NCBI GenBank assembly: GCA_041661745.1
Contig: JBAZTR010000004.1
Span: 12,961 to 76,960 of the forward strand
From: Patescibacteria group bacterium
GTDB lineage: Bacteria > Patescibacteriota > Patescibacteriia > UBA9934 > GWF2-40-263
Length of the DNA: 64,000 nt
Reading direction: 5' to 3'
Below are positions 1 to 45,628 of this stretch, piece by piece (position 1 is the stretch's first letter; the number at the start of each line of letters is the position of its first letter). The translations under genes and the position numbers were made by a program. The notes under the pieces were generated by a model, which saw nothing but the letters and a program-made list of their open reading frames with translations, was not told the origin of the DNA and made no database searches.

Positions 1-20
1 CTGGCCGAGCCGCTACGCCG

Positions 21-77
21 CGCGCTCGACCGACCCCACACTTTCATCACTGCGGTGGTGAGAGTATGGGGTTACAA
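21..77 (+). repeat. Hairpin-containing direct repeat, copy 1 (ccccacactttcatcac/gtggtgagagtatgggg stem-loop)
   Basis: About 55 nt is near-identical to 524..578. It contains an internal imperfect inverted repeat able to form a 16–17 bp hairpin. Confidence 0.7.
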
Positions 78-107
78 ATCCGAGCCCCCTCGTATGGAGA
101 TACTGCC

Positions 108-485
108 ATGACGACCCTTCAGAGAGTCTTGAATTCCCAGGAACAGGCCAATGAAGCCCGTCGAGAGTTGGCCGCGCAGATGATCGAGGACGTCCCTGCC
201 CGCCTCCGCCCCCTCCTCCAGGAGAGGTTGGGGCTCGAAGGACTCGAGAGCCGGCGATGGTTCCTCGGCCTGTTGGAAGGTGACGCACCGACCATGGGCG
301 TCAGTCTGTGCCAGGCCAAGCGGTTCGGCTGGGAGTCCCTCGCGGACCTCCGGACCGAGCTCCTCACCCTGAACCAGGCCTGGTACGAGGTCCTCGAGAT
401 CGAAGAGATCAAGATCTCGAGGCCGAACAACCCCAGGCGGAGCCACCTGAAGGTGATCTTCACGATCGCCCCCTGCCGCGACTAG
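108..485 (+). CDS. Hypothetical protein (GC-rich island gene); alternative start at 66 lies inside the hairpin repeat
   Basis: Six-frame ORF 66..485. The internal ATG at 108 is preceded by GGAG. GC is about 62%, far above the window background. There is a weak HhH-like stretch (SLCQAKRFGWESLADLRTELL). Confidence 0.45.
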   Translation: MTTLQRVLNSQEQANEARRELAAQMIEDVPARLRPLLQERLGLEGLESRRWFLGLLEGDAPTMGVSLCQAKRFGWESLADLRTELLTLNQAWYEVLEIEEIKISRPNNPRRSHLKVIFTIAPCRD

Positions 486-523
486 TTGTTCTCCGACCCT
501 CCTTCTCGGTCGAGCGCGCTCTG

Positions 524-578
524 TGCTCGACCGACCCCACACTTTCATCACTGCGGTGGTGAGAGTGTGGGGTTACAC
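524..578 (+). repeat. Hairpin-containing direct repeat, copy 2
   Basis: Near-identical to 21..77. The two copies bracket the GC-rich ORF that ends at 485. Confidence 0.7.
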
Positions 579-625
579 AATTTGTCCATTCCTTCCCCGG
601 AGTTCCAAGTGGAAACCATTCTCAA

Positions 626-971: not shown

Positions 972-1048
972 GCCGAACTCGCTTCTCGAGCTCGGCCGCC
1001 CATCCTCGCGCATAATTTATTTGTGCACGAAGAGGAGAAATAAAAAAT

Positions 1049-1070
1049 CGCCTTCGCCCGGCGGTTTTTT
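1049..1070 (+). terminator. Putative intrinsic terminator (cgcc-ttcgccc-ggcg + T6)
   Basis: Short GC stem followed by tttttt, directly downstream of ORF 626..971. Confidence 0.35.
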
Positions 1071-1097
1071 GTTTGTTGATTAGTGTTCTTACCTCAC

Positions 1098-1912: not shown

Positions 1913-2985
1913 AAAGCTTCCCAGGTCTGTTTAACGGTTTTGTCCCATGAAAATTGTTTGACGCACGCCAGTCCCTTGGTTGAAAGATTGTCCAAGATGC
2001 CGGGCTCGCGAGCGGTGCGTGTTAGAGCGGCGGCCCACTGATCAGGGGCCATGGGTGGCACGAATTCCGCAGCCTCGCACATGACTTCGCGATGGGCCGG
2101 AATATTAGAGGCAATAACCGGCGTGCCCGAGGCAGCCGCTTCGAGTGGGGTTAAACCAAAACCTTCGTACCAACTTGGCGCCAGCAAAGCGCGAGCCCCG
2201 CCGACAAGAGCCGGCAAATCTTCGCGCGGCACAAAATCGAGCCACGAAATATAATCGGTATATGGCGATAGCGCCGCGGCTTTTTTAACTTCCTCACCGC
2301 GCCAACCAAGTCGACCGGCAAAAACTAAACGCATGGGATCGCCAAAACCCATGTTTTTTTTGAAGTCGTTAAAAGCCGGGACAAGCATGGCCGGATTTTT
2401 TTTAGCTTCAACACGGCCGACAAATAAAAAATAATTTTTGTATCCAAGACGATACTTATTTAAAACCGGCTCTAAGGCTTCCCGCCCGGCCTGGACAAAA
2501 AGTTTATCAGCCGCCAACGGAATGACAATTACTTTTTCCGGCTTGGCGTGAAAAAAATTAATGAGTTCGTTTTTGGTAAATTCACTCGGAGTAAAAATAA
2601 CATCAGCCCGTTTTACTGCCCGGCGCGTGGCGATATTTTGCCGACCAACCTCGGCATGGTGATACAAATCAGGACGGCTGCGAAAACCAACGTCGTGAAT
2701 AGTTGTGGCAACCTTAACTTTTTTTGGAATAAAAAACGGCAAACCTTGGCCAGGCACAAAAAATACGTTCGGCGGCCGGCGCCACAATTCCCAAGTAACC
2801 CGAAATTGCATCCAACCTCTTTTTAACGACCAACGAAGCGTGGAAAGATTATAAAGACGAAGTTCAACTTCGCCACCCATAATCGACAATTCCTTAAAAC
2901 CATCAACCATTTGCTTGGCGTATTCTTCCACGCCAGTGCGTTGTGGCTTTTCGGCTGATGATGAATCGATGGCGATTGTTATCAT
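1888..2985 (-). CDS. Glycosyltransferase family 4 (GT1-fold, group 1)
   Basis: C-terminal EGFGLTPLEAAASGTPVIAS motif typical of GT4 retaining glycosyltransferases. The track ORF extends to 3033, but the first 16 codons translate the upstream palindromic element. Met at 2985 (MITIAID…) is preferred. Confidence 0.75.
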   Translation of the reverse strand: MITIAIDSSSAEKPQRTGVEEYAKQMVDGFKELSIMGGEVELRLYNLSTLRWSLKRGWMQFRVTWELWRRPPNVFFVPGQGLPFFIPKKVKVATTIHDVGFRSRPDLYHHAEVGRQNIATRRAVKRADVIFTPSEFTKNELINFFHAKPEKVIVIPLAADKLFVQAGREALEPVLNKYRLGYKNYFLFVGRVEAKKNPAMLVPAFNDFKKNMGFGDPMRLVFAGRLGWRGEEVKKAAALSPYTDYISWLDFVPREDLPALVGGARALLAPSWYEGFGLTPLEAAASGTPVIASNIPAHREVMCEAAEFVPPMAPDQWAAALTRTAREPGILDNLSTKGLACVKQFSWDKTVKQTWEALWNMLPKS

Positions 2986-2993
2986 ATTTTTAG

Positions 2994-3072
2994 GTTTGAG
3001 TATGTAGTATGTAGTGGGTAGGCAATAGATCAAACTGAAACTTTTGCCTACATGCTACCTACTACATACTAC
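2994..3072. repeat. Palindromic element PE-Y (gtatgtagtatgtagtgggtaggcaatagatc … gcctacatgctacctactacatac)
   Basis: About 80-bp imperfect palindrome. Five copies in the window: 2994, 7645, 24395, 28241 and 34063. All lie immediately 5' of minus-strand gene starts. Confidence 0.85.
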
Positions 3073-7308: not shown

Positions 7309-7638
7309 TTACCTAGAAAGTAACGCTACCATCAAAAACATCATAGCTCCAATTAAGACAAACCAGGCCACGGTCATACCCAAAAACCACAAGCCTTCCT
7401 TCTTTTTATTATCCAAATACAAAAGAATCGGTTTCAAGAAAAACAAAATACCCATCATTGCCGTCGAGAGAACAAGAATCATTAGAATAAAAGCCATCAT
7501 CAAAAAATCTGGGACCGAGACGCCAAAGTTGCCAAAAAAGTCTTCGCTGGAAAGCGTCAGGGTGAGGATAACGATATAAGCAACTGCCCCGGCGGCATGA
7601 TAAAACGGATAAAGGATATTTTTGTAGAAATTTTTCAT
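7309..7638 (-). CDS. Small integral membrane protein (3 TM)
   Basis: Hydrophobic 110-aa ORF. The first 6 codons of the track ORF (to 7656) translate the PE-Y element, so Met at 7638 is preferred. Confidence 0.5.
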   Translation of the reverse strand: MKNFYKNILYPFYHAAGAVAYIVILTLTLSSEDFFGNFGVSVPDFLMMAFILMILVLSTAMMGILFFLKPILLYLDNKKKEGLWFLGMTVAWFVLIGAMMFLMVALLSR

Positions 7639-7644
7639 ATTTTT

Positions 7645-7726
7645 GGGTTTGAGCATGTAGTAGGTAGTATGTAGGCAAAAGTTCCCGATTAGATCTATTG
7701 CCTACCCACTACATACTACATACTAA
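7645..7726. repeat. Palindromic element PE-Y (reverse orientation)
   Basis: Reverse complement of the 2994 copy: tagtaggtagtatgtaggcaaaagtt…gatctattgcctacccactacatactacatac. Confidence 0.85.
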
Positions 7727-10502: not shown

Positions 10503-10600
10503 GTCTATTTTTCCTCTTCCCCTCTACCCCTGCCCTCTCCTTCCCAAGGAGAGGGAGATCTCGTGGGCGCTCGACGCGGGGCTGTTTGTTTTTCTTCTCT
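10503..10600. repeat. PE-C family element (cccctgccctctcc-ttcccaa-ggagagggag) plus conserved tail gctcgacgcggggctgtttgttttt
   Basis: Inverted repeat plus a tail shared with 11040 and 17860. Confidence 0.75.
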
Positions 10601-16976: not shown

Positions 16977-17282
16977 ATGTCCGACCAGTTTTATGGACTC
17001 AACGACCGAGAGTTGGAACTTCTTCTGAAGAGCGTGGACGACTTCAAAATGTCGACCCGACTCAGAAACTGCTGCGAGCACGCTGGGGTGGGATGGGTGT
17101 GGCAGATGGTCAAGCTCAACAAAGCCGAGCTGCTCGCCGAAGAGCCGCGGCGCTTCGGTCCCAAGTCGATCAAGGAGATGGAGGAACTTCTCTTGCCTAT
17201 CGGTCTTTCCATGGGCCGCAACTTCACCAGGGAGCAGCTGACGTTCCTCAACGGCTGTTCCAATCCGGCCGGTACGGCCTAA
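16977..17282 (+). CDS. Stand-alone RNA polymerase alpha-subunit C-terminal-domain (alpha-CTD)-like HhH protein
   Basis: STRLRNCCEHAGVGWVWQMVKLNKAELLAE-PRRFGPKSIKEMEELLLPIGLSMG aligns to E. coli RpoA alpha-CTD [54 protein letters not shown]. GC-rich, 101 aa. Confidence 0.65.
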   Translation: MSDQFYGLNDRELELLLKSVDDFKMSTRLRNCCEHAGVGWVWQMVKLNKAELLAEEPRRFGPKSIKEMEELLLPIGLSMGRNFTREQLTFLNGCSNPAGTA

Positions 17283-17385: not shown

Positions 17386-17718
17386 TCAGGTCCGTCGGGC
17401 GTTGAGGGCATGCTCGAGGCCACGGAAGGCTCGGCTGAACTCGCGAGCCCCCTCGATGAGGCTCGGGTGGTCCAGGGCTTCCACCTTGGCGGCGATCTCA
17501 GGGTCGTCCGGGATCTGGGGCAGGCCGAGCCGGTTGAGCTGGCGGTTGATGCAGCGCCAGGTGTCTTGGCCGTAGCCGCGCCGGTGAGCGAGGTCGCGAC
17601 GGGTGAGCTGGGTCACATCGCCGGCCGTGCAGCAGTGGTGGCGCGCGGCGAGGTAGTTGACGAGGTTGCGATCGAAACCGGCTTCGACAAGCAAAAGCGA
17701 GGCGGAATCTTGACACAT
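17386..17718 (-). CDS. Stand-alone alpha-CTD-like HhH protein (paralog)
   Basis: NLVNYLAARHHCCTAGDVTQLTRRDLAHRRGYGQDTWRCINRQLNRLGLPQ follows the same alpha-CTD pattern, including a Cys pair. GC-rich, 110 aa. Confidence 0.6.
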   Translation of the reverse strand: MCQDSASLLLVEAGFDRNLVNYLAARHHCCTAGDVTQLTRRDLAHRRGYGQDTWRCINRQLNRLGLPQIPDDPEIAAKVEALDHPSLIEGAREFSRAFRGLEHALNARRT

Positions 17719-18115: not shown

Positions 18116-18760
18116 TTAATAAGAAGACTCCCTTAAACACTTTCGAAATTTTCTAAAATCAGGACAATGTAAAGCCACCAATTGCCAAAAAGCGCGCGAA
18201 TGATTTTTGTGCGGAATATGCGCCAGCTCGTGCACCACGACATAATCAACAACTTCCAGCGGTTGAAGAATTAATTTCCAACCAAAGTTAAGATGATTTT
18301 TGTGGCTGCACGAGCCCCAGCGTTTTTGGGCGCTGTTAATTTTTATCGAAGTAAAATTCACTCCCATTTGTTTAGCATACAAAGTGGCCCGTTCGGTAAT
18401 TATTTCTTTGGCTTCCTGTTTATACCAAGCAGCCATTTTAATTTTAGCTTTAGGCAAAAACTTTTGGGGAAAAAGTAAATCGCCTTTTAGCTCGATCTTT
18501 TTAACTTTAGAAATTTTTAAGGGATAACTTTCCCCCAAGTACCAAAACACTTCCCCGTCGACGAATTCTTTTGGTTGTGACTTGGGGCGATTTTTAACGG
18601 CGACAATTTTCTTTTGAATCCAGGACATTTTATCTTGCACTAATTTTTCAATATAAACTTCCGAAACTCGCTGGGGTGCCCGAATTATCAAAACCGCCTC
18701 GGGAGTTATCTCCAGGCTGATAGTGCGGCGGTTGGAACGGATGATTTTTGCGGTTTCCAT
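18116..18760 (-). CDS. M48-family / DUF45 (YgjP-like) zinc metallopeptidase
   Basis: HELAHIPHKNHS zinc-binding motif near the C-terminus. 214 aa. Confidence 0.7.
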   Translation of the reverse strand: METAKIIRSNRRTISLEITPEAVLIIRAPQRVSEVYIEKLVQDKMSWIQKKIVAVKNRPKSQPKEFVDGEVFWYLGESYPLKISKVKKIELKGDLLFPQKFLPKAKIKMAAWYKQEAKEIITERATLYAKQMGVNFTSIKINSAQKRWGSCSHKNHLNFGWKLILQPLEVVDYVVVHELAHIPHKNHSRAFWQLVALHCPDFRKFRKCLRESSY

Positions 18761-18997: not shown

Positions 18998-19030
18998 AGT
19001 ATGCCCCCTTTTAGAAAAAGGAAAGAAACC

Positions 19031-19720
19031 ATGCAGGACACCATTAAGCATCTTCTCCTTATTGCCCGACTCACAGCACTGGCCAACAAGGTCAACGGAG
19101 TGATCACCGATAAAAGGCAGGAAAAGACGATCACAAAGCTGATCATGGGGGGATTGGTTCGCACTATCCTCTGGGGCGTGCTCTGGTACGTTCCACTCTG
19201 GCTTCTGGGGGACCCTTCGTTCCTTATGAAGCTCCTCTGGGCCAACCTGATCGTCAGCGCGATGCTCTTCGTTGTGCACGCAGTTGTTCCAAGCAACGTG
19301 ATCACTCGAAGGATGCAGCGGCAAAAGATTAAGACGAAAGGACCTATGGCGATCTTCGGTCTGTTCATTGTCATCTTCTTCATGCCCACAGCATTACTCT
19401 TCGCGGTGAAGGCGGGCGACCAGTACCAGGAGGTCTTGGCCGGCAAAATCCTGCGCGACGACCGGGCCACGCTCTTTTCGCGAAACGGACATCTGATCAA
19501 ACTCGTTGAGGAGTATTTTGTGAGGTCTGGAAAAGAGATGGACAAAACCGTCATGGATCAGGTCTGGGTGCTGGAGCAGGAGCTGCTCGACTTTTCCGAG
19601 CGAACTGGCGAGCTCGGCGAAAGCAACGAAATCACCTGGCCGGAGACCGAGCCTTTCCTCAGAAGAGTTGAGAGGCTGATCGACGAACTCACTGTCTTGA
19701 CTGGCAACACTTCCTCTTAA
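19031..19720 (+). CDS. GC-rich cassette gene 1: membrane protein (3–4 TM) with cytoplasmic C-terminal domain
   Basis: The track ORF starts at 19001, inside the promoter. Met at 19031 after AAGGAAAG is preferred. TM segments are LVRTILWGVLWYVPLWLL, LLWANLIVSAMLFVV and IFGLFIVIFFMPTALLFAV. GC is about 58%. Confidence 0.55.
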   Translation: MQDTIKHLLLIARLTALANKVNGVITDKRQEKTITKLIMGGLVRTILWGVLWYVPLWLLGDPSFLMKLLWANLIVSAMLFVVHAVVPSNVITRRMQRQKIKTKGPMAIFGLFIVIFFMPTALLFAVKAGDQYQEVLAGKILRDDRATLFSRNGHLIKLVEEYFVRSGKEMDKTVMDQVWVLEQELLDFSERTGELGESNEITWPETEPFLRRVERLIDELTVLTGNTSS

Positions 19721-19981: not shown

Positions 19982-20434
19982 ATGAAAATCGAACTAACCA
20001 CTCGTATGAGCGTACGTGTGGTCACGGGCGATCTGTCGGCAGACGTCCACCTCGAGGATCGTCGTTTGAAAGCACTGATTGCCCTCGCGTATAAATTCAA
20101 GGGTGAATGCGTCACCCTTGTCATCGATCCGATGATGGAAGAGGAAGCGACCTCGATCATCGACTCGATCGCGGGTCTCAACGGTGAGGGAGCCGACCAG
20201 ACAATCAACGGCCGACGCCTGGATGTGCACGAGCTCAGGGTTGATTGCGGAAACCAGCGCGGTATTGTCGTGAACCCCCACAACCCGAGATGCGATCTGC
20301 TTCTCCTCATGAGCATCGCAATCAAATCAGAACAGCTCACCGTCGAACTGCCGCCAACCGACACCATGGCCGAACTCGTCGACCGAATCTCGGTCTACCC
20401 CTTCCCGCACAAGGAAAGGGTCATGCCAGAATAA
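19982..20434 (+). CDS. GC-rich cassette gene 2: hypothetical soluble protein (150 aa)
   Basis: GGAGGG Shine-Dalgarno 5 nt upstream. GC about 60%. No domain recognised. Confidence 0.55.
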   Translation: MKIELTTRMSVRVVTGDLSADVHLEDRRLKALIALAYKFKGECVTLVIDPMMEEEATSIIDSIAGLNGEGADQTINGRRLDVHELRVDCGNQRGIVVNPHNPRCDLLLLMSIAIKSEQLTVELPPTDTMAELVDRISVYPFPHKERVMPE

Positions 20435-20509: not shown

Positions 20510-20550
20510 TTCTGGCTGGTCTCCTACTCTCCCAGCTTCCTAGTCTCCTA
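20505..20550. repeat. PE-T family fragment (ctcctactctcccagcttcctagtctcctaaca)
   Basis: Shares ctcctag/cctagtctcc words with the elements at 22166, 33533 and 41294. Confidence 0.5.
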
Positions 20551-20556
20551 ACACTC

Positions 20557-20585
20557 TGGACACAAATCCAAAACTATGATAAAAA
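20557..20585 (+). promoter_or_regulatory. Conserved cassette promoter tggaca-N17-taaaaa
   Basis: Same motif and spacing as the other two cassette promoters. Confidence 0.6.
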
Positions 20586-20622: not shown

Positions 20623-21492
20623 ATGAACGTAATCCATGATGGAGAAACCGGAGGCATCCGGGTGTTCTTCGGGGAAACCGTGATCGACATCGACCCCCGC
20701 GATCCGCGCTGTCATGGGCTGCTCAACGACCGGGGGTTCATGAAGATCGCCAACATCAAGTGCGGTTCGATCTTGATCGTCTTCGGCCGGAGCTTGAGGA
20801 CGAAGACGGCCCGCATGATGGGCGAGATCATGTTCGGCTGGACCCTCACCAATTCCTCGAACTCGCAAATCGTCGCCGAAAGAGGGGTGCGTGTGAGGAT
20901 CGGCGGCTGGAAGCCCATGCCCGTGCCGCACAACTGCGATATGTTCGAGCTCCTCGAACACGCGGACGCGCTGTACTTCGACACGATGGAGATCCGAACG
21001 AAGGCTTCGGAGGTGGCAGCCAGGGCCTTGGGGCCGTTCATCATGATCCCCTTCGTTCCGCCCGAGCCGACCCCGAGCGAACTGGCCATCGCCGAGTTCA
21101 GGAGAAGGACCGGCGTGGAGCCGACTTCGGTGCTGCTCGAAGCAGAGGCCGAGGATGCTCCCGAACCACCGGTGGCGGTTCCGGCTGGCGCCGAAGCGAA
21201 CTCCCCCATCCCCGGCCTCACGCCGGAGCAGGTCAAGAACCTGATCAGGCGATGCGACGAGCTGGGGTTCACCACTCGTGTGACGAACGGCCTCAGGACC
21301 GTCGGATGTGAATTCGTCTACCAGGTGGTGGAAAAAACCGGACCCGAGACGCTCGGGGCCAAGGGCCTCGGTCGCAGGTCCAATAATGAGCTCAGGGTGA
21401 TTCTCGCCGAACTCGGGCTCAGCTTCGGCATGAACTTCACCACCGAACAGCGAGCCGCTCTCGAGCGCCTGGCTCACCAGCTGCCGCGCTGA
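20623..21492 (+). CDS. GC-rich cassette gene 3: two-domain protein with C-terminal alpha-CTD-like HhH domain
   Basis: The C-terminus TTRVTNGLRTVGCEFVYQVVEKTGPETLGAKGLGRRSNNELRVILAELGLSFGMNFTTEQ parallels ORFs 16977 and 17386. The N-terminal 200 aa have no recognisable domain. GGAGGA Shine-Dalgarno. Confidence 0.6.
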   Translation: MNVIHDGETGGIRVFFGETVIDIDPRDPRCHGLLNDRGFMKIANIKCGSILIVFGRSLRTKTARMMGEIMFGWTLTNSSNSQIVAERGVRVRIGGWKPMPVPHNCDMFELLEHADALYFDTMEIRTKASEVAARALGPFIMIPFVPPEPTPSELAIAEFRRRTGVEPTSVLLEAEAEDAPEPPVAVPAGAEANSPIPGLTPEQVKNLIRRCDELGFTTRVTNGLRTVGCEFVYQVVEKTGPETLGAKGLGRRSNNELRVILAELGLSFGMNFTTEQRAALERLAHQLPR

Positions 21493-21750: not shown

Positions 21751-21953
21751 CCGACTGGACATCCTAATAGCATCTGGTAAACTAAAAATATTATGAAAGG
21801 CTTAACCGCCCAATTTGGCTTCTTTAGCTTCTGCTTTACCAAAGCGGGTGGTTTAGTTCTCTCTTAAAAGATAAATAAGAGGCCGCCCGCGTTCCCACGC
21901 GAGCGGTCTTTTGTTTTGTCCCTGATCCCGTAACCAGGCAAGGAGGAAAAGTC

Positions 21954-22115
21954 ATGGCCGCCACGAACCAAAACCGTGAAGATCCGCGTCGCTACACTGA
22001 AACGACCGACACTACCGGACAGCGTCTGGCCGTTGATCAGGACGGCAACAAGTTCCTTCTTCGGGCGGACCAGATCGTCTACAACGGTCAGGTCTACAAT
22101 CTCGGGGGCTTCTAG
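21954..22115 (+). CDS. Small GC-rich protein (53 aa), not in the ORF track
   Basis: AAGGAGGA Shine-Dalgarno 5 nt upstream of the ATG. A clean terminator follows at 22129..22157 (ggcagaa-aacac-ttctgcc + T7). Sequence: MAATNQNREDPRRYTETTDTTGQRLAVDQDGNKFLLRADQIVYNGQVYNLGGF. Confidence 0.45.
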   Translation: MAATNQNREDPRRYTETTDTTGQRLAVDQDGNKFLLRADQIVYNGQVYNLGGF

Positions 22116-22157: not shown

Positions 22158-22165
22158 TTAAACAA

Positions 22166-22194
22166 GCTAGCCTCCTAGTCTCCTAGCATCCTAC
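22166..22194. repeat. PE-T family element (ctagcctcctagtctcctagcatcctacc)
   Basis: cctag-based tandem words shared with the elements at 33533, 41294 and 20505. Confidence 0.6.
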
Positions 22195-23666
22195 CGCACC
22201 TTCTTCGTCACATTAAATCCAAGATACTTCCCCAACATAAGGCGAGTCTGCGCATCAATGGCCGGTGCGGCTCCGAACACCGTAAAAGTAATGGGAAGAA
22301 GAAGCCACTGAAAAATCATGACAATCCAAGCGGTTGCTTTCACGGTCTTTGGTCGTGGTGGCAACATGGTTAAGGACAAGCCGGCGGTAATAAAGGCTCC
22401 ACCCATGGCTAGTCGCATAATCCATTCCAAAGTAAAAGGCGCGGCATGAATAATGGCCGAGCCACTGCCGGCCGCCACCCATAGCGGCAAATAACCAAGG
22501 GCAAAAATAAGAATCGGCGCCGTGGCCCAGGTGTACATGCCCTCAATATGATTGAAAAGATATTTAATTTTCTTGTTCAAGGGAATGAGCTTATCTTTTT
22601 TAAAGGCATCAACCATGACCGGAAAGTGTTCGACACCCCAAGCCCAGCGACGCTGCTGTTTGTACAAGGCTTTTAAACTCTCCCAATAGTTGGCGCCAAC
22701 GACCGTGTCCATGGAAACCGGCAAAAACATCGGTACCACGCGATAGTCGCCGTGGTATTTAAGGAAAGCTTGCAGAAAAATTCGCGAATCTTCCGAGACA
22801 ATATCTTTTTGCCAAAAATCAACATCAACTAACATTTTCCACGGCATGGAGTGCGAAGAAAAAGTCCAAAGTCGGTCCGAGCGAGCCAATTCCGTCAAAA
22901 GCCAAAAAACCGTACCAAAGGCGGCAATTCTAACCGGGGCGCGCGAGGTCCAAATATTATTGGAAAACAGGACAACTGGTTGATATGAGGCGTGCGTTGG
23001 ATTCGGCGAAGTTAAATACAAATACGAAAGGCAGGCGAAGTACGATGGGTGTACGACAGTGTCGACGTCAAACGAGGAAACAATAATATCTTCGGCTGGG
23101 ATATCAGAAAACTCACTGGCCAAAATCTTTTTAACTTCGTGGCCGGAATAATTAAGGTTGGAACCTTTACCGGGAATTTCGTCAGGCAGACCAACCGGAT
23201 GTTCGGTAACAATAATTTTTTTGAAGGTTTTGCTAAATTCCTGTGAAATAATCGCCGCGTTTTTTTGGAAACGCTCGTGATCACGTCCTTCACCGGCCAA
23301 GACAATAATCATTTTGTCCTTGGGGTAATGGGTCGCGGCAATGGAACGCAAGGTTTCACGAATAATTTCCGTGCTTTCTTTATAAGTCGGCAAGAAAATT
23401 AAATGATGCAGGCGCTGCCAATTATTTTGTTTTTGTAAGTCAGCAAACCAATCATACTTAATGGCGTGTTTGTATTCGCGCCAGGAAAGCAGCATGAAAA
23501 TGGCAAAATAAACAATTCTAAAAAACCAATAAAGGTCAAAAACAATAATAAAGACAACGGGAATAATTGGCGCGACAAACGACAAAACAATCGCCAAAAT
23601 TAAAGTCGTCCAGACCAAGGCGCCGGGGAAAATTTCCCAAATTCGATTTTTGCCATATGTCGACAT
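22191..23666 (-). CDS. Processive family-2 glycosyltransferase (CesA/chitin-synthase-like membrane GT2)
   Basis: N- and C-terminal multi-TM regions flank a GT-A domain carrying the QQRRW (QxxRW) motif of processive beta-glycosyltransferases. 491 aa. Confidence 0.75.
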   Translation of the reverse strand: MSTYGKNRIWEIFPGALVWTTLILAIVLSFVAPIIPVVFIIVFDLYWFFRIVYFAIFMLLSWREYKHAIKYDWFADLQKQNNWQRLHHLIFLPTYKESTEIIRETLRSIAATHYPKDKMIIVLAGEGRDHERFQKNAAIISQEFSKTFKKIIVTEHPVGLPDEIPGKGSNLNYSGHEVKKILASEFSDIPAEDIIVSSFDVDTVVHPSYFACLSYLYLTSPNPTHASYQPVVLFSNNIWTSRAPVRIAAFGTVFWLLTELARSDRLWTFSSHSMPWKMLVDVDFWQKDIVSEDSRIFLQAFLKYHGDYRVVPMFLPVSMDTVVGANYWESLKALYKQQRRWAWGVEHFPVMVDAFKKDKLIPLNKKIKYLFNHIEGMYTWATAPILIFALGYLPLWVAAGSGSAIIHAAPFTLEWIMRLAMGGAFITAGLSLTMLPPRPKTVKATAWIVMIFQWLLLPITFTVFGAAPAIDAQTRLMLGKYLGFNVTKKVR

Positions 23667-23720
23667 AGAAATTTCCCCTCCCCTTACGAAGGGGAGGGGT
23701 TAAGGGGTGAGGTTAGGACG
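23662..23720. repeat. PE-C element (cccctcccc-ttacgaa-ggggagggg-ttaaggggtgagg)
   Basis: Perfect 9-bp inverted repeat of the PE-C family. Confidence 0.8.
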
Positions 23721-24387: not shown

Positions 24388-24394
24388 ATGTTTT

Positions 24395-24477
24395 TTAGTG
24401 GGTAGGTGTGTAGTAGGTAGTATGTAGGCAAAAGTTCCCGACTAGATCTATTGCCTACCCACTACATACTACATACT
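24395..24477. repeat. Palindromic element PE-Y
   Basis: Same orientation as the 7645 copy. Confidence 0.85.
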
Positions 24478-24881
24478 CAAACCTTTTTAATAGTAATATG
24501 AGGCGGCCGATCGTAAACCGGGGTAACAAAACCTTCGGTTTTTTGTTTTACCCAAATAGCGCCGGATGTTCGGATCATTTCTTCCCCACCCTGGCGGGCC
24601 GCGTTTTCTACACCAATCACTAAAAGTTTCTTGGCAAAGGCTAAAGCATTGGCAATGGTGACAATAATCCTGGTCGAGGTAAACGAACCTGGGCCGGAAA
24701 CCACCACAATCTTTTCCAGGGCTTCTGGCGAAACCAAGTGATCGTGCAAAAATTCGGCGGTCGTGGCCAAATAACCCTCGGGGGCAACGGTAAATTCCTG
24801 AAACGAAAGAAGACGACCTTCGCTATCAAGAAGGCCGGCTTCCATTCGAGTAATATCTTGAGCGGCCAAGAATAAAATCAT
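24477..24881 (-). CDS. tsaB: TsaB (YeaZ)-like protein, truncated ASKHA fold
   Basis: VVSGPGSFTSTRIIVTIANALAFA matches the TsaB/Kae1-family glycine-rich loop. 134 aa, shorter than canonical TsaB. Confidence 0.55.
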   Translation of the reverse strand: MILFLAAQDITRMEAGLLDSEGRLLSFQEFTVAPEGYLATTAEFLHDHLVSPEALEKIVVVSGPGSFTSTRIIVTIANALAFAKKLLVIGVENAARQGGEEMIRTSGAIWVKQKTEGFVTPVYDRPPHITIKKV

Positions 24882-27838: not shown

Positions 27839-28237
27839 TTATTTCAATTCAGCCTTACCGCCAGCTTCTTCGATTTTCTTTTTCATTTCTTCGGCAGCGG
27901 CTTTGTCAACGCCTTCTTTGATCATCTTCGGGGCGCCGTCGACCAAATCCTTGGCTTCTTTAAGTCCAAGACCGGTCACTTCACGGACGACTTTGATGAC
28001 GCCGATTTTGTTGTCACCAGTGGCCGTCAACTCGACGTTGAAAGAGGTTTTCTCTTCAGCGGCGGCAGCACCACCAGGCGCGGCGGCCATCATCATAGCT
28101 GGAGCCGAGGCGGAAACGCCGAACTTCTCTTCAAGGACCTTAACCAATTCGGCCAGGTCAAGAACGGACATTTTTTCGATTTCTTCGACCAAAGCTTTGA
28201 ACTTGGCCGGGACTTCGACAATTTTTTCGTCAGACAT
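27839..28237 (-). CDS. rplL: 50S ribosomal protein L7/L12
   Basis: Canonical L7/L12 with an Ala-rich hinge and the C-terminal [27 protein letters not shown] motif. Confidence 0.95.
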
Positions 28238-28240
28238 ATT

Positions 28241-28322
28241 TTTAGGTTCGAGTATGTAGTATGTAGTGGGTAGGCAATAGATTTAATGAAACTTTTGCCT
28301 ACATACTACCTACTACGTACTA
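28241..28322. repeat. Palindromic element PE-Y
   Basis: Lies between rplJ and rplL, immediately 5' of the rplL start. Confidence 0.85.
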
Positions 28323-30838: not shown

Positions 30839-31042
30839 TTATTCTTCAAACTTCTTCTTCAACTCCTTAATTTTATTTTCAACTTCGGAAAGTTTGCCTT
30901 TACAAACTTTCGCGAGCTCAAGTCCGCGTTCAAACTTAGCCAGACCTTCATCAAGGTCGGCTTCGCCTTTTTCGAACCACTCGGTGATTTGTTCGAGCTC
31001 TTCAAAAGCTTTGGAAAAATTTACAGTTGTTTTTTTGGTCAT
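30839..31042 (-). CDS. xseB: Exodeoxyribonuclease VII small subunit
   Basis: 67-aa coiled-coil FEELEQITEWFEKGEADLDEGLAKFERGLELAK. Overlaps the xseA stop by 4 nt. Confidence 0.85.
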   Translation of the reverse strand: MTKKTTVNFSKAFEELEQITEWFEKGEADLDEGLAKFERGLELAKVCKGKLSEVENKIKELKKKFEE

Positions 31043-32247
31043 ATAAGTTTTAGTTTTCCTTTTCCATTAACTCGCAACACTTCGGCCCCAAGCGAACCTT
31101 CAGCTAATTGTACCCCGATTTCCGCGCCAATCTCAAGCGCAGCCGCGTCTTTGATTACCTTCCCTCTGGCTGTAACAATACTGTAGCCGCGGGCCAGAAC
31201 GCGTTTAGGATCAAGATTGGCCAGAACGCGGAACGAAGCAGCTAAACGATCTTTGAAACGCGGCAGCCAATTGTTAACACGATCAAACAAATTGTTGGTG
31301 AGATGTGATAATTTTTCTTTTTGACGATCAGCCGCGGAAAAAATAAGTTGAGTGGCGCGATCAATTAACATTTGCTTCTCGCCTAAAACATCACTTAAAC
31401 GATTTTCTAAATGTCGGGTCATGGTTTCAATTTCATAAAGAACCTCCTGGCGATTTGGGACAACTCGTTCAGCTGCGTTGGACGGTGTGGAAGCACGGAC
31501 ATCGGCGACAAAATCGCAGAGCGATTCGTCACGCTCGTGGCCAACGCCGCAAACCACGGGAATTTTGGAACCAAAAACCGCGCGGGTAACTTGTTCGTCG
31601 TTGAAGGCATGAAGATCTTCCAAGCTGCCGCCGCCGCGAGTTAGTACTAAAACTTCCGGCCGCTTATCATCGGGCAAAGAATTAAATTTTTCGAAAGCCT
31701 CAAGAATTTCCGGCACGGCTTCCCGCCCCTGCACATGCACGTGTGAGAATAAAACCTCAACCCCGCCCCAGCGATTATTTAAAATTCTGATAAAGTCGCC
31801 GTAAGCCGCGGCATCACGCGAAGTGATTAAACCAATCCGTTCGGGAAATCTTGGCAAGCGGCGTTTGCGCGAAATCTCAAATAAACCTTCGTCGGTTAAT
31901 TTCTTTTTTAAAAGTTCGTAAGCTTTTTTTAAAGCCCCGTCGCCAACAGCTTCCATTTTTTGCACTTCAATTTGAAAACCGCTCCACTTATTAATGGCCG
32001 GCGGTCCCCAAACTTTTACTTTCATGCCGTCCTCAAATACTCCGCTCACTTTAAAAGTCGTGGCAAAACAACCGACTTTGGCCGAGGGATCGTTTTCATC
32101 TTTCAGCGAAAACATTATCCACTTGCCGTCTTTTATTTTGTAATCAAAAATCTCGCCTTCCACGGCAAAAGAATAGCCATCAATGTTTAATTTCAAAACT
32201 TGGTTGGCTAATTTCAGGTATTCCGAAACTTGTAGGACAGGTTCCAT
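31039..32247 (-). CDS. xseA: Exodeoxyribonuclease VII large subunit
   Basis: N-terminal OB fold plus the ExoVII-large catalytic region. 402 aa. Operon with xseB. Confidence 0.85.
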   Translation of the reverse strand: MEPVLQVSEYLKLANQVLKLNIDGYSFAVEGEIFDYKIKDGKWIMFSLKDENDPSAKVGCFATTFKVSGVFEDGMKVKVWGPPAINKWSGFQIEVQKMEAVGDGALKKAYELLKKKLTDEGLFEISRKRRLPRFPERIGLITSRDAAAYGDFIRILNNRWGGVEVLFSHVHVQGREAVPEILEAFEKFNSLPDDKRPEVLVLTRGGGSLEDLHAFNDEQVTRAVFGSKIPVVCGVGHERDESLCDFVADVRASTPSNAAERVVPNRQEVLYEIETMTRHLENRLSDVLGEKQMLIDRATQLIFSAADRQKEKLSHLTNNLFDRVNNWLPRFKDRLAASFRVLANLDPKRVLARGYSIVTARGKVIKDAAALEIGAEIGVQLAEGSLGAEVLRVNGKGKLKLI

Positions 32248-33532: not shown

Positions 33533-33582
33533 CTAGTCGATTCTGCCTAGTCTCCTAGCTTCCTACCCTCCTAGCCTCCTAA
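33533..33582. repeat. PE-T family element (cctagtctcctagcttcctaccctcctagcctcct)
   Basis: Identical 35-mer to the reverse complement of 41297..41331. Confidence 0.75.
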
Positions 33583-34043
33583 AAATAAACCGGCTGAAAA
33601 ACCGGCACCGCCAACCAAAATATAAAAGCAATAAGAAGAAGCGAAACCAAAACTTCGAGCCAAACGGTTTTCCCTTCCTTACGCCCCAACCAACCAAAAC
33701 CAAAAAGCGGGAAAAAAATAAAATCAAAAACCAACCAAACCAAACCAGTAAAAAACAAAAGGGTCAACGGCCCGTACGGTTGGCCGACAAAATCAAGCCA
33801 GCCTTTATCAGCAACAAAAGGGTAGGTGCTGCCAAAGACCATCCCCATCAAAATATGTAACAGAAGGCCGGTGGCAAAAGCTGCTAATTGCGACAGGCGC
33901 AAATCAAAAAAAGATTTTACATCAACCACTAGCGGCAAATTTTTAACCTTGCCGCGGCGAACAACTTCCGTGATTATCGCCGGCATGGAAACAAGGAAAG
34001 CCGCCAGGCCACCGACTGAAGCGCCTAAAATAATGTCGTTCAT
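33579..34043 (-). CDS. Integral membrane protein (4–5 TM)
   Basis: Hydrophobicity. 154 aa. Confidence 0.45.
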   Translation of the reverse strand: MNDIILGASVGGLAAFLVSMPAIITEVVRRGKVKNLPLVVDVKSFFDLRLSQLAAFATGLLLHILMGMVFGSTYPFVADKGWLDFVGQPYGPLTLLFFTGLVWLVFDFIFFPLFGFGWLGRKEGKTVWLEVLVSLLLIAFIFWLAVPVFQPVYF

Positions 34044-34062
34044 ATTTGTTTTTTTTGGACAC

Positions 34063-34150
34063 GAGTATGTAGTAAGTAGTGGGTAGGCAATAGATCTAAT
34101 TGGGAACTTTTGCCTACATACTACCTACTACTTACTACAATACTACATAC
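34063..34150. repeat. Palindromic element PE-Y
   Basis: Same orientation as the 2994 copy. Confidence 0.85.
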
Positions 34151-35017: not shown

Positions 35018-36412
35018 TTAAGAAAATTGTTTAGCCACCCAGTCCTTTAAGAGCCAGGTAGCCTTAACATCATCTTTATTATACGTCAATATTTTTTCCA
35101 AAGTTTGTTTATCACCGTTTTTTAAATATTCCTCAAACCAACGCACCGCCTGCACTCCCGAAGCATCTTCGGCTTGCCATTTATAACCAACGTACGCGCC
35201 AAGATCTTTTAGTGAATAAAACGAAAGAGGAAAAATCACCGCCGGACGAAGAAGAAATAACAGGTCATGCATTCGCCCCTCGATTTGCGAACGAAGTTCG
35301 TCAGGTAAAAAATACTTGGCGGCAAAACGACGAAAAACTTCCATCTCAAACCACCCATAATGATAAATCGGCGCGTCTTCCCTTTTTAAAACAAACTCAA
35401 TAAATTTTCGCCACATTTCACCTTCGTCTTCTGGTTTTTCAGCCAGGAATGGATAGTAGTGACTTTTGCCGCTCTTAACTTCAAGAACACCAAAAAGGAA
35501 ATCCAAATCCCGAAGTGGATCGCTTTCAATATCAAAATAAAGTTCGGTCGTAGCCTCGGGAAATTCTGGTTCAGACAAAAGAATGTGACGATTCTCGACA
35601 ATTGCTTCGGCCTGGCGGCGCAACAAATCAAGGCGATCATAACGCACGGCCGGGGCTAATTTTTCCAAATCAGATAAAGAAATTTTTGCTAAATCCTCCA
35701 AAGTCTTAATACCAATTTTTTGTAGAGCAGCCACCTCTTCGCGCCAAACACGATTCAAAACCGAAAGATCGCGACAGTTTTCCGATTCCAATCGACATGC
35801 TCCATACCACGGCGATTGCTTGCAACCGGCTGTTAAAAAGTGAGCCGGTTTTTCCCCAGCCACAACGCGCTCGATTTCCGACAGCGACAAATGGAAATAC
35901 GCTTCAAACTCTTCAATTAAATATCCGACAATCTTCTTATCTGGTGTGATGATATAACCCTGAAATGGTTTTGCCCCCTGCAAGCGCGACAAAAGCTCGG
36001 CATAAAAACAACCTTGAAACTTGTAAGCATCGCGAACATCGCGCGATCTCTTTACATCGGCCGCTACATAATAATAATTACCAAAAATCGAATGACCCTC
36101 CACCTTGGCCAAAATGTCGGGATTACCAACCCAATGTCCGTGTACTAAAACACCTTTATAAATAGTTTCCCGACCCTCACGCATGAAATCAAGTGTCTGG
36201 TGAAAAGCGTCGTCAGGATCTTCGGCTGTGACTTCAACCAAATCAGGGCGATCGTTAATCAGCTCACGCTCTTTTTCCGGCAACAAGCCATCATCAAGCA
36301 AACGCGAAAGCAGCGGATCAACGGCCGCTTCAGCCTCATGGACATCGCGATACACCCAGCTGGGGCACTTAAGGTATTTGTAGAAAGTTTTTTCGGTAAT
36401 TTGTTTGGCCAT
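35018..36412 (-). CDS. RecB-family (Cas4-like PD-(D/E)xK) nuclease-like protein, TM0106-type
   Basis: N-terminal YKYLKCPSWVY Cas4/RecB-like motif, with cysteines near the C-terminal region. 464 aa. The family call is tentative. Confidence 0.45.
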   Translation of the reverse strand: MAKQITEKTFYKYLKCPSWVYRDVHEAEAAVDPLLSRLLDDGLLPEKERELINDRPDLVEVTAEDPDDAFHQTLDFMREGRETIYKGVLVHGHWVGNPDILAKVEGHSIFGNYYYVAADVKRSRDVRDAYKFQGCFYAELLSRLQGAKPFQGYIITPDKKIVGYLIEEFEAYFHLSLSEIERVVAGEKPAHFLTAGCKQSPWYGACRLESENCRDLSVLNRVWREEVAALQKIGIKTLEDLAKISLSDLEKLAPAVRYDRLDLLRRQAEAIVENRHILLSEPEFPEATTELYFDIESDPLRDLDFLFGVLEVKSGKSHYYPFLAEKPEDEGEMWRKFIEFVLKREDAPIYHYGWFEMEVFRRFAAKYFLPDELRSQIEGRMHDLLFLLRPAVIFPLSFYSLKDLGAYVGYKWQAEDASGVQAVRWFEEYLKNGDKQTLEKILTYNKDDVKATWLLKDWVAKQFS

Positions 36413-38456: not shown

Positions 38457-39500
38457 TTATTCCCACGGCAAACCTTCTCGCCCAAACTGTCCGTAAACGG
38501 AAACCGCGCGATACCGCGGTTTCTTTAAATCCATTTTTTCGACAATGTCGTCAAGGTTAAAATTATAATTTTGTTTAACGTATTCCAAAAGAGTTCCCCC
38601 TCCCTCACTGGGGGAGGGCTGGGGAGAGGGATTTGAAGATTTGACGTCAATCATTACCGGTTCGGAACGTCCCAGAGTGTAAGTCAAAGAAACAACAGCC
38701 GAATCAGCCTTCCCTTCCTTAACCAATTGCTTGGCAACATATCTGGCCATGTAAGCTCCGGCCCGTTCGGCTCGCTGAGGATCCTTGCCAATAGGCGAAG
38801 AATCGCCGTGCGGTACCAGCCCGCCATAAAAATCCGCGGCCGCGCGTCGACCACTTACCCCAGCCTCGGACTGAAAACCTTGGGTAGAAAATTGCCCAAT
38901 GGGATTTATAAAAATTTGCGCTTGCTCGCCGCCAATAATCGGGGCTACCACACGCTCCAACAAACGGGCTTGAACATCAATCGGAGCAACGTCTGCCGCG
39001 TGACTGGCTAAAAGGGTTACGGCCGAAACTTTTTTCCCTTCCATTACCACTTGTGCTTTACCATCAGCTCCCAGCCAGTGAAACGAAGGGTCGAGTCGGC
39101 GCAAATCATCAAGACGACGAACCAAACCTTGGGCCAGAACCATAGGAAGTGGAAGAAACTCACGCGTCTCGCGGGTGGCGTAACCGTTCACGACAACCGT
39201 GTCGTACGAACCGTGTATTTTTTTTATTTCCTCGGAAGAACTTTCGATATTTACAAAAACTTCAATTTCATCAGAATAACCAATTTCGTGATACATTTGT
39301 TTGGCCAACGAGGCCACGTCAAAATCGGCCGTGGAATTAACTTCCCCGCCAACCATAACCATGCCGTGTGAACCCAAAACTTTAATGTCCAAACGGCTGT
39401 CCGGATCGCGCCGCAAATATTCATCAACAATACCGTCGGCGATTTGATCGCAGATTTTATCAGAATGTCCGGCACAAAGTGCTTCAACGGTTTTCGACAT
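38457..39500 (-). CDS. metK: S-adenosylmethionine synthetase (bacterial type) with in-frame PE-C insertion
   Basis: GHSDKICDQIADGIVDEYL N-terminus. About 14 extra residues (SNPSPQPSPSEGGG) are encoded by the PE-C repeat at 38593..38640. Confidence 0.8.
   Translation of the reverse strand: MSKTVEALCAGHSDKICDQIADGIVDEYLRRDPDSRLDIKVLGSHGMVMVGGEVNSTADFDVASLAKQMYHEIGYSDEIEVFVNIESSSEEIKKIHGSYDTVVVNGYATRETREFLPLPMVLAQGLVRRLDDLRRLDPSFHWLGADGKAQVVMEGKKVSAVTLLASHAADVAPIDVQARLLERVVAPIIGGEQAQIFINPIGQFSTQGFQSEAGVSGRRAAADFYGGLVPHGDSSPIGKDPQRAERAGAYMARYVAKQLVKEGKADSAVVSLTYTLGRSEPVMIDVKSSNPSPQPSPSEGGGTLLEYVKQNYNFNLDDIVEKMDLKKPRYRAVSVYGQFGREGLPWE
38593..38640. repeat. PE-C element inserted in-frame within metK
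   Basis: ccccctccctcactgggggagggctggggagaggg lies inside the metK reading frame. Confidence 0.75.
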
Positions 39501-39783: not shown

Positions 39784-39866
39784 TCTGCTTCCCCTCTCCT
39801 TACGAAGGAGAGGGGTGTAGGGGTGAGGTAAACAAAAAACCATCCTTTCTTAGGGTGGTTTTTTGT
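39783..39866. repeat. PE-C element (cccctctcc-ttacgaa-ggagagggg-tgtaggggtgagg) plus terminator hairpin
   Basis: Perfect 9-bp inverted repeat, then aaccatcctttcttagggtggtttttt. Confidence 0.8.
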
Positions 39867-41293: not shown

Positions 41294-41400
41294 GCTAAGG
41301 AGGCTAGGAGGGTAGGAAGCTAGGAGACTAGGCAGATGCGAGTTAAAGACTAGATTCCTAGCCTCCTAGCATCCTAGCCTCCTAAAAGTCTCCTAAAAGT
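41294..41400. repeat. PE-T compound element (inverted pair)
   Basis: aggaggctaggagggtaggaagctaggagactagg … cctagcctcctagcatcctagcctcctaaaagtctcctaaaag. Confidence 0.75.
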
Positions 41401-41894: not shown

Positions 41895-41916
41895 CCAGCC
41901 AACCGGCTGGTTTTTT
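41895..41916 (+). terminator. Intrinsic terminator
   Basis: 6-bp GC stem plus T6. Confidence 0.7.
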
Positions 41917-42976
41917 AATAAATAAACATCGCATCACCAAAAGAATAAAAACGATATTTTTCTTTTATCGCTTCTTCGTACGCTCGCAAAATATTTTCTC
42001 GACCAGCCAAGGCTGAAACCAAAACCAACAACGTTGATTTTGGTAAATGAAAATTAGTAATGAGTCCGTCAATAACATTAAATTTGAAACCCGGGGTGAT
42101 AAAAATATTTACTTCACCTAAAAAACCGTTTTCCGGAAGTTGGTCGTTATTCATTTTAGCTACTCCTTCAAGAGCGCGGGTGGTCGTTGTCCCCACAGCG
42201 ATAATTCTTCGTCCTTCCTTTTTTGCGGCATTAATTTTTTGGGCCACCTCGGCTTTTACTTCCACCAACTCTGAATGCATTTCGTGTTCTTCAAGAGTTT
42301 CAGTTTTCACCGGGCGAAAAGTCCCGAGCCCCACGTGTAATGTCACAAATTCAATCTCAATTCCCTTCTCTTTTATTTTTTGTAATAATTCTTTTGTAAA
42401 GTGAAACCCGGCTGTGGGCGCGGCCACTGATCCGGTTTCGCGAGCATAAACCGTTTGATATGTTTCCAATTTTTCCGGAATCTTTTTTACATAAGGCGGC
42501 ACGGGAATCTCACCATGTTTGTCGGTAAAATCTAAGACCTCGGCGGCCGAAACGGAAAACTGCAATTCGGCCGTGCCATCTTCGGCTTTACTTAAAACTT
42601 TTGCTTTTAATTCACCAAAATAAATTTCATCGCCAATTTTCACTTTTCGCCCCGGTTTCAACAAAGCCTGCCACACCTCTTCCGCCGAACGCAACAAAAA
42701 CACTTCTATTTCGTTTTCCCTTACCCTGCCCCGTAATCGCGCTTTAAAAACCTTGGTGTCGTTCATAACCAGAATGTCACCCGGACGAAGATATTCGATA
42801 ATTTCAAAAAAATGCCGATGTTCAAGGAAAGGCTCCTCAGCCCTTCCCAGCCCTTCAAGACCCTTCCCAGCCCTTTCCAACACCAAAAGCCGCGATGAAT
42901 CGCGCGGTTCGACCGGAGTTTGGGCAATCAGCTCAACTGGCAAATTGTAGTCAAAAAGGGAAATCGGGGTGGTCAT
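41915..42976 (-). CDS. queA: S-adenosylmethionine:tRNA ribosyltransferase-isomerase
   Basis: N-terminal LFDYNLPVELIAQTPVEPRDSSRLLVL and the C-terminal GTTTTRALE region. Carries an in-frame low-complexity tandem-repeat insertion (GKGLEGLGRAEEP). Confidence 0.85.
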   Translation of the reverse strand: MTTPISLFDYNLPVELIAQTPVEPRDSSRLLVLERAGKGLEGLGRAEEPFLEHRHFFEIIEYLRPGDILVMNDTKVFKARLRGRVRENEIEVFLLRSAEEVWQALLKPGRKVKIGDEIYFGELKAKVLSKAEDGTAELQFSVSAAEVLDFTDKHGEIPVPPYVKKIPEKLETYQTVYARETGSVAAPTAGFHFTKELLQKIKEKGIEIEFVTLHVGLGTFRPVKTETLEEHEMHSELVEVKAEVAQKINAAKKEGRRIIAVGTTTTRALEGVAKMNNDQLPENGFLGEVNIFITPGFKFNVIDGLITNFHLPKSTLLVLVSALAGRENILRAYEEAIKEKYRFYSFGDAMFIY

Positions 42977-45531: not shown

Positions 45532-45628
45532 GGAGGCTTAGCTCAGTGGTAGAGCACGAGCTGATAGGAATCAGGGCCCTTGCCTGGTTACTAGCCCGTG
45601 GCCACAGGTTCGATTCCTGTAGCCCCCA
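45532..45628 (+). tRNA. Atypical tRNA-like gene (97 nt); anticodon region about 25 nt too long (possible intron or pseudo-tRNA)
   Basis: Acceptor GGAGGCT / AGCCCCC (one A·C mismatch). Canonical D-arm GCTCAGTGGTAGAGC. Canonical T-arm ACAGG-TTCGATT-CCTGT and a 5-nt variable loop. The anticodon stem CGAGC/GCCCG encloses 32 nt instead of 7. Confidence 0.4.

Follow-up and report, generated by a model that had tools for sequence, protein, structure and literature searches.

A duplicated intergenic hairpin in an apparently foreign GC-rich gene cluster of a Patescibacteria group bacterium

Introduction

The stretch of DNA analysed here (the window, 64 kb of a Patescibacteria group bacterium) opens with two near-identical palindromic sequences, one on each side of a GC-rich gene. 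This arrangement raises the question of what such a repeat does between genes, that is, whether it hides a start codon, ends transcription, marks a place of gene exchange, or acts on the messenger RNA. Taken alone, the element is of little consequence, as intergenic hairpins and short local duplications are common and it is known in two copies from one uncultured genome. Its value lies in the context: the element is of an ordinary kind, a duplicated hairpin spacer, and it marks an unusual GC-rich operon of apparently foreign orphan genes, beside a conserved unannotated small RNA and among host genes that mostly lack a Shine-Dalgarno site.

Results and discussion

The repeat and its hairpin

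A repeat search over the 64-kb window detected a direct repeat of 53 nt at positions 24-76 and 525-577 on the + strand, with an identity of 52/53 (98%) and a period of 501 nt. The hairpin repeat that the original prediction had placed at 21-77 and 524-578 is therefore real, with slightly refined edges. The sole difference between the copies is A66 in copy 1 against G567 in copy 2. The repeat is far beyond chance, the 40-nt core pattern having two exact matches in the 64 kb versus 0.00 expected from shuffles.

Each 53-nt copy contains an inverted repeat with 18-nt arms and a 4-nt loop. Folded as + strand RNA, the core forms a stem of 19 bp capped by a UGCG loop, at 32-73 in copy 1 (hairpin B1) and at 533-574 in copy 2 (hairpin B2). 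In hairpin B2, 19 pairs follow one another without interruption, two of them G.U, and the stem is closed by a G.U; hairpin B1 contains a C39.A66 mismatch. Both imperfections of the palindrome are T.G wobbles on the + strand, and full pairing is possible only as + strand RNA. Folding, which had been suggested as a check, bore out the hairpin and gave it a direction. The 71-nt stretches around copies 1 and 2 fold with -33.7 and -38.3 kcal/mol on the + strand (z = -4.5 and -7.2), and with -30.3 and -27.1 kcal/mol on the - strand (z = -2.5 and -2.9), where the folds are weaker because of these T.G positions. Among all 46-nt segments of both strands in a sliding fold of the whole window, copy 2 ranks first in stability and copy 1 only sixth, the latter because A66 makes the C.A mismatch; segments over the hairpins reach -29 to -35 kcal/mol. 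The repeat stems are also the longest uninterrupted GC-rich stems in the window, according to a scan for uninterrupted stems.

The search for further copies gave a single match to the hairpin pattern among 241 million records of metagenome contigs, which is the same locus (contig Ga0172379_10041333, 4213 nt). The exact pattern had no match in viral contigs or in genome contigs, and half-hairpin scans of the viral contigs had none either, apart from one chance 19-mer without a partner arm. A covariance model of the core (19 pairs, filters off) retrieved only the two copies of the window, and none more in the extended contig or in six related loci. The comparison with Rfam yielded nothing at the hairpins at the gathering threshold or at E up to 10, in the window and the extended contig. 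Thus, no further copies were found, and the hairpin is not conserved at the homologous locus described below, the two outcomes that the original prediction had named as speaking against it.

Two equal spacers

The matching metagenome contig, turned to the orientation of the window, is referred to as L002; subtracting 1256 from an L002 position gives the window position. Over 2957 nt it has the same sequence as the window, and a further 1256 nt extend it in the upstream direction. This extension beyond the window edge, which had also been proposed as a check, revealed a further gene, ORF0, and the whole of spacer 1, which begins 16 nt before the window start (L002 1241). Both repeat copies are thereby seen to lie in intergenic spacers of exactly 123 nt, at L002 1241-1363 and window 486-608. 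The two copies are in sense orientation, between co-oriented genes, and at the same spacer offset, with the hairpin core at spacer positions 49-88 and its end 36 nt before the next start codon. In both spacers the TAG stop codon is followed by about 20 nt, a hairpin A of 8-11 bp, hairpin B with its 19 bp and UGCG loop, another 23-26 nt, GGAG, 6-8 nt, and the start codon. The first 10 nt of the 53-nt repeat form the 3' arm of hairpin A, which hairpin B adjoins, and the 156-nt stretches that hold hairpins A and B adopt the same two-hairpin fold (z = -5.5 and -6.7).

Outside the repeat the two spacers have diverged. The degenerate 5' part of spacer 1 within the window (1-23, + strand) carries the small hairpin A1 at about 6-28, and that of spacer 2 (486-524, + strand) contributes loop and 5' arm to hairpin A2 (507-533), whose 3' arm is in the repeat. 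The 39 nt from stop codon to core are similar between the spacers, with indels (shuffle p = 0.0055), and no similarity was found between the two in the 31 nt 3' of the core. The 501-nt register is seen again around the stop codons, at L002 1228/1729 (repeat family D6). Judging from this pattern, gene conversion or recent copying, perhaps with some selection as well, would best account for a near-identical core beside diverged flanks. The repeats themselves are best explained as what has stayed conserved of a 123-nt spacer that was duplicated within a three-gene operon. The original prediction had the second copy begin an ORF at 486; this is a mechanical frame opening after the TAG at 483-485, which runs through the spacer.

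A duplicated spacer need not have a function. The boundaries of identity are sharp, there is no conservation elsewhere, and the host is rich in other palindromic intergenic repeat families, all of which would suit a local duplication without function, or a very small selfish palindrome of the REP or MITE type that came to lie in both spacers by chance. Nevertheless, the element occurs in two copies only, in one operon, with the same orientation, the same offset and equal spacer lengths; there are no target-site duplications at its edges and no dispersed copies in the window, and its composition is that of the foreign cluster, not that of the host repeats. We therefore regard a functionless origin as improbable.

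Genes of the cluster

The spacers separate three + strand genes. ORF0 (L002 1118-1240), just upstream of the window, encodes a hydrophobic protein of 40 aa, with GC1/GC2/GC3 of 0.59/0.44/0.80. ORF1 (108-485; NCBI MFA6132164.1, WC702_03875) encodes 125 aa, ends in TAG and has values of 0.63/0.42/0.87; with 64% GC, the gene between the copies is GC-rich as predicted. ORF2 (609-971) encodes 120 aa, also ends in TAG and has values of 0.62/0.50/0.83; its product has one N-terminal hydrophobic helix and a Trp/Arg-rich tail. The NCBI locus tags at the locus are WC702_03875 and WC702_03880. The codon-position GC pattern of ORF0, ORF1 and ORF2 is that of real genes of GC-rich DNA.

The search for relatives of ORF1 and ORF2 among 5.8 billion clustered proteins returned self matches only, as did a HMMER search with ORF1 over 1.84 billion representative proteins. 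ORF1 and ORF2 had no match in Pfam and PHROGs, and the comparison of ORF0, ORF1 and ORF2 with PADLOC and NCBIfam gave nothing meaningful. The AlphaFold model of ORF1, computed from the single sequence, has low confidence (pLDDT 64), and the Foldseek search with it against the PDB found nothing below E = 3. Blastn of the whole GC-rich segment against phage and plasmid collections also found no match. Tandem gene duplication was ruled out as the source of the arrangement, ORF0, ORF1 and ORF2 being mutually dissimilar.

Start codons and the frame through the spacers

According to the original prediction, the first copy contains an ATG at 66, and the hairpin could be a riboregulator that sequesters a start codon. 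The ATG is present, although only by virtue of the single A66/G567 mismatch. ATG 66 and its counterpart GTG 567 are in frame with the downstream genes, the spacers are multiples of three without an in-frame stop, and TAG ends all three genes, so that sequestration of these codons, or translation of the spacers by amber read-through, could be considered. The other evidence runs against both. GGAG(A) is located 4-7 nt before the start codon in all three genes; read in the sequence, the Shine-Dalgarno site of ORF1 is GGAGA at 96-100, 7 nt before ATG 108, and that of ORF2 is GGAG at 599-602, 6 nt before GTG 609, both on the + strand, and these canonical sites precede 108 and 609, not 66 and 567. 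Functional starts and GGAG sites lie 23-36 nt downstream of the stem, outside the helix. Gene callers place the start of ORF1 at 108 and that of ORF2 at 609 or 582, never at 66 or 567, and the JGI gene call on the 4.2-kb contig starts ORF2 at 609.

The composition of the spacers points in the same direction. Their GC by codon position is 0.61/0.66/0.54 and 0.56/0.56/0.59, versus about 0.62/0.45/0.85 in the genes; third-position GC is thus flat in both and, by our estimate, about 5 SD under the gene level. The 14 codons of 66-107 have GC1/2/3 of 0.57/0.57/0.50, with no third-position bias (GC3 of ORF1 is 0.87). Because of this flat codon-position GC, the true starts are ATG 108 and GTG 609, and ATG 66 is an accident of one mismatch found in one copy only. 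A sequestered start codon or a translated spacer is hardly credible on this evidence, and a single fused ORF with amber read-through was rejected on the flat spacer GC3.

One frame is common to ORF0, ORF1 and ORF2, from L002 1118 to window 1043. Neither TAA nor TGA interrupts this frame in the 123-nt spacers or in the 69 nt that follow ORF2, and it closes at TAA 1041-1043, directly before the terminator described below. The flat spacer GC3 argues that this shared open frame is due to chance.

Promoters and terminators

The promoter scan called no sigma-70-like promoter adjoining either copy, and the terminator scan called no intrinsic terminator at either. ORF0, ORF1 and ORF2 are therefore probably co-transcribed as a three-gene operon of the + strand. 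The sole strong promoter is far upstream, at L002 351-379 (TTGACA-17-TATTAT, 11/12 matches, TG before the -10 box). The cluster is closed at 1038-1074 (+ strand) by a host-type terminator made of an A-tract, a 15-pair stem and a T-tract, which belongs to repeat family D10, the family of other host terminators too.

The proposal that the two copies are a terminator or attenuator pair was not supported. The sequences that follow the stems, UUACAAAUCC and UUACACAAUUUG (UUACA...), contain no U-tract, and neither hairpin is called as a terminator. A broader form of this idea is that hairpins of pausing, attenuation or termination lower expression stepwise along the operon, for which the very stable GC-rich stem directly after each gene would be suitable. 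For GC-rich bacteria, terminators that lack a U-tract have been proposed. Yet the terminators of this host all have T-tracts (families D7, D10), no alternative anti-terminator fold was found, and with termination at the hairpins ORF2 would have no promoter of its own. Taken with the missing U-tract and the negative scans, this makes stepwise lowering of expression very unlikely.

Origin of the GC-rich cluster

The first 1 kb or so of the window has 63.5% GC and the remainder 37-48%, the GC-rich composition ending near 1010; the operon has about 63% GC versus about 44% for the host. The cluster lies in a Patescibacteria (Uhrbacteria-like) chromosome, with a small structured RNA gene on one side and a trmB-like gene on the other. 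A scan of species-representative genomes with the trmB-like protein led to the closest related genome, a Candidatus Uhrbacteria MAG (locus L003), in which this protein is 71% identical. The gene order there is mreB, glycosyltransferase, trmB-like gene, an intergenic region of 378 nt, and holB. The GC-rich segment is absent from this syntenic site, and so are the hairpins. The 378-nt intergenic region of L003 comprises the same promoter, then a structured RNA of about 170 nt, then a terminator. The promoter (L002 349-377) and the RNA (L002 821-1005) are kept in the present genome, but 440 nt of GC-rich sequence set them apart, and the three-gene cluster follows the terminator of the RNA.

Compared with this nearest relative, the hairpins lie inside an insertion and not at its ends. 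The original prediction had also considered them the ends of an inserted unit at the window edge; they are inside the GC-rich insertion, but as internal gene spacers, not as its ends. The three-gene cluster looks foreign to this genome. An assembly chimera was rejected as a cause, as host sequence is present on both flanks of the cluster and the homologue of the host small RNA lies between two GC-rich segments. Host genes in the window have GC3 of 0.36-0.52, and many are without a Shine-Dalgarno site. ORF1, ORF2 and the further GC-rich genes with a checked ATG, at 16977-17282, 17386-17718 (-), 19982-20434 and 20623-21492, have GC3 of 0.68-0.87 and a GGAG(G) site.

The insertion is also relevant to the main rival explanation, in which the repeats act at the DNA level as homology for the entry of ORF1 into, or its exit from, the ORF0-ORF2 operon, by Campbell-type recombination of a circular cassette of ORF plus spacer, as in the PeSL shuffling of T4-type phages. 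PeSL (promoter-early stem-loops) are composites of a sigma-70 promoter and a terminator stem-loop that are present in many copies in hyperplastic regions (PMC2839356, PMC4122927), and such motifs flank orphan genes and recombine to mini-circles (PMC2839356). At the present locus, direct repeats with a 501-nt period exactly bracket one orphan gene, and the 52/53 core with an unrelated 3' flank and a diverged 5' flank looks like a recent exchange. The three genes are not paralogues, so that a diverged tandem gene duplication does not account for the repeats, and relative to the nearest genome the cluster as a whole is inserted. On the other hand, a single bracketed gene and two copies are all that is known, nothing nearby was seen to encode a recombinase, and no contig variant without ORF1 was found. 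The similarity of the 5' flanks and the equal 123-nt spacers suggest an older duplication of a whole spacer and not a clean cassette junction. Such recombination would be compatible with a role of the RNA. Overall, we consider a recombination patch possible, but unlikely.

The small structured RNA and the insert before it

The structured RNA of about 170 nt is located at L002 826-1000 (+), shortly before the window start, and its homologue at L003 6836-7006 (-); holB lies on one side of it and the trmB-like gene on the other. A sigma-70 promoter and a terminator of its own accompany it in L003. The helix that closes the RNA consists of AAACCUGGAGG/CCUCCAGAUUU. For the two sequences, RNAalifold predicted 47 pairs, 12 of them with compensatory double changes. 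The comparison with Rfam showed no family match for this RNA, which may be an undescribed small RNA of Patescibacteria.

The 440-nt GC-rich insert between the promoter and the conserved RNA (L002 386-825, +) folds with -176 kcal/mol (z = -6.6). It possesses no long ORF, but two mini-ORFs of 10 and 17 codons are present behind very strong Shine-Dalgarno sites, one of which, AAGGAGGTGATCC, is a 13-nt complement of the 3' end of 16S rRNA.

Other features of the window

Further GC-rich small genes (GC3 0.68-0.82) are present in the lower-GC host sequence. These comprise the four listed above together with 19001-19720 and about 21945-22115, and most of them have a GGAG(G) site; the gene at 19001-19720 (GC3 0.70) has no GGAG in the 25 nt upstream. 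Two of these further GC-rich genes contain an RNA polymerase alpha C-terminal domain (PF03118), and the comparison with PHROG gave no match for any. Repeated modules lie between the genes at 18.8-21.8 kb: promoter-like CTGGACACAAA...TAAAAA (family D11), a terminator CCTCACCTGAGGATCTTTTT (family D7), and a 132-nt repeat (family D1) found in three copies, at 18823, 19775 and 21606. As the window holds at least five additional GC-rich orphan cassettes, with promoter and terminator modules that recur, the import of genes in cassettes is conceivable as a general trait of this genome, in line with a speculative reading discussed below.

Several host genes without a Shine-Dalgarno site have a TATAAT-like box 5-9 nt before the ATG, such as those at 18116-18760 (-), 31039-32247 (-), 35018-36412 (-) and 41915-42976 (-), which suggests that their mRNAs may be leaderless; most of the GC-rich genes differ in having a GGAG(G) site. 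The host also possesses different families of repeats. Hairpins of the type CCCCTCTCCTT-loop-AAGGAGAGGGG were found at 1104-1137, 10531-10564, 23674-23707, 38594-38627 and 39790-39823, and long TAGTATGTAGTGGGTAGGCAA palindromes at 2983-3071, 7636-7725, 24389-24478, 28235-28322 and 34048-34137. Tandem tracts of an 8-nt unit of the CTAGNCTC type are located at 20516-20561, 22159-22212, 33547-33584 and 41342-41395. Two Logan contigs with an identical trmB-like gene end in the palindrome at window 1108, which has no bearing on the presence or absence of the cluster; these ends lie in a hairpin of the CCCCTCTCCTT-loop-AAGGAGAGGGG kind. At 45532-45628 (+), Rfam detected a tRNA of 97 nt with 50.6 bits, and ARAGORN called no tRNA anywhere in the window; the element may be a tRNA with an insertion or intron.

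Predicted role of the hairpins in the mRNA

The repeat is predicted, tentatively and with somewhat less than even confidence, to be a duplicated intergenic RNA stem-loop that stabilises the mRNA or directs its processing. This role is favoured because of the anatomy and the strand asymmetry of the stem. It is further supported by the one promoter and one terminator common to the genes, and by the fixed distance from the hairpin to the next ribosome-binding site.

The hairpins would form on the polycistronic mRNA between the cistrons, where, as the best-supported mechanism, they could block 3'-to-5' exonucleases and so protect the upstream cistron. In addition, a double-strand-specific nuclease such as RNase III may find a substrate in the helix of about 20 bp, in which case the 5' end of each downstream cistron would be structured and its ribosome-binding site exposed. 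Under either mechanism, the next ribosome-binding site would be in an unstructured stretch. A helix of about 20 bp is in the size class of RNase III substrates. The helix of about two turns that is a feature of RNase III sites was found here, with 19 pairs and the closing G.U in copy 2, and with one C.A mismatch in copy 1. The search for an RNase III signature (ERLEFLGD-like) found none in the 64-kb window, a result that is not informative for the whole genome.

Some observations count against a role in the mRNA. The A66/G567 difference breaks a pair and does not compensate, and as the only two copies are near-identical and give no covariation, the RNA structure lacks evolutionary support. Every nucleotide of the core is kept, including the loop and the unpaired flanks, which is not expected of purely structural selection and agrees better with gene conversion or recent copying. 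In addition, the element is absent from the sole homologous locus.

Comparison with known systems

The element shares with integron attC sites, which are imperfect palindromes of 50-140 nt, the position after small promoterless orphan genes of the same orientation. The GTTRRRY box at the 3' edge is partly present, as GTTACAA in copy 1 (5/7) and GTTACAC in copy 2 (6/7). At the 5' edge (GCTCGACCGACCCC), the search for the RYYYAAC box found no AAC box. Extrahelical bases and bulges are absent, as is the two-box (R/L) arrangement in which the central spacer is unpaired, and no integrase was seen among the flanking genes. The many dispersed copies of REP/BIME elements were not found, the covariance model having detected two copies in 64 kb and no others. 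The element has the palindrome of MITEs, but its flanking bases (gc/aa, gt/ca) show no duplication and its copies number only two. Membership in attC, REP and MITE was rejected on these defining features. Of the two parts of an intrinsic terminator, the element has the GC-rich stem-loop and lacks the U-rich tract 3' of the stem.

Similar to PeSL, the element is a repeated intergenic G/C-rich stem-loop that flanks small orphan genes and could serve as short homology for the insertion or excision of a single gene (PMC2839356, PMC4122927). The flanking of orphan genes is evident from the self matches of ORF1 and ORF2, whereas the joined sigma-70 promoter of PeSL is missing. The present element also differs in having no terminator tail, in its two copies and in its location on a bacterial chromosome. 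The layout of the genes at 18.8-21.8 kb is closer to PeSL cassettes than the hairpins reviewed here are. A more speculative reading combines recombination patch and RNA processing site: the hairpin module would be a portable junction that strings foreign, GC-rich, Shine-Dalgarno-led orphan genes into operons, which we hold to be rather far-fetched. By analogy, such a junction would be a promoter-less counterpart of phage PeSL cassettes, an equivalence that we likewise give little credence. Hairpins that were cassette junctions or dedicated processing sites would bear on the uptake and expression of foreign genes in reduced genomes.

The preferred reading, a stem-loop acting in the mRNA, has its closest tested examples in the intercistronic mRNA stem-loops of the RNase III sites of T7, the malE-malF REP of E. 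coli, and puf of Rhodobacter. The stabilisation of upstream mRNA by intercistronic hairpins is well established for the RNase III sites of the T7 early region and for the malE-malF REP. The T7 sites differ from the present element in having internal loops and in being experimentally tested, the element described here being known from its sequence. REPs differ in that a genome has hundreds of them, along with a RAYT transposase, and in having a consensus of their own; the present element occurs in two copies in one orphan operon. The likeness to these stem-loops consists in a stable sense hairpin between co-transcribed genes, with a helix of about 20 bp, located after the stop codon and before the next ribosome-binding site, and repeated within one transcription unit.
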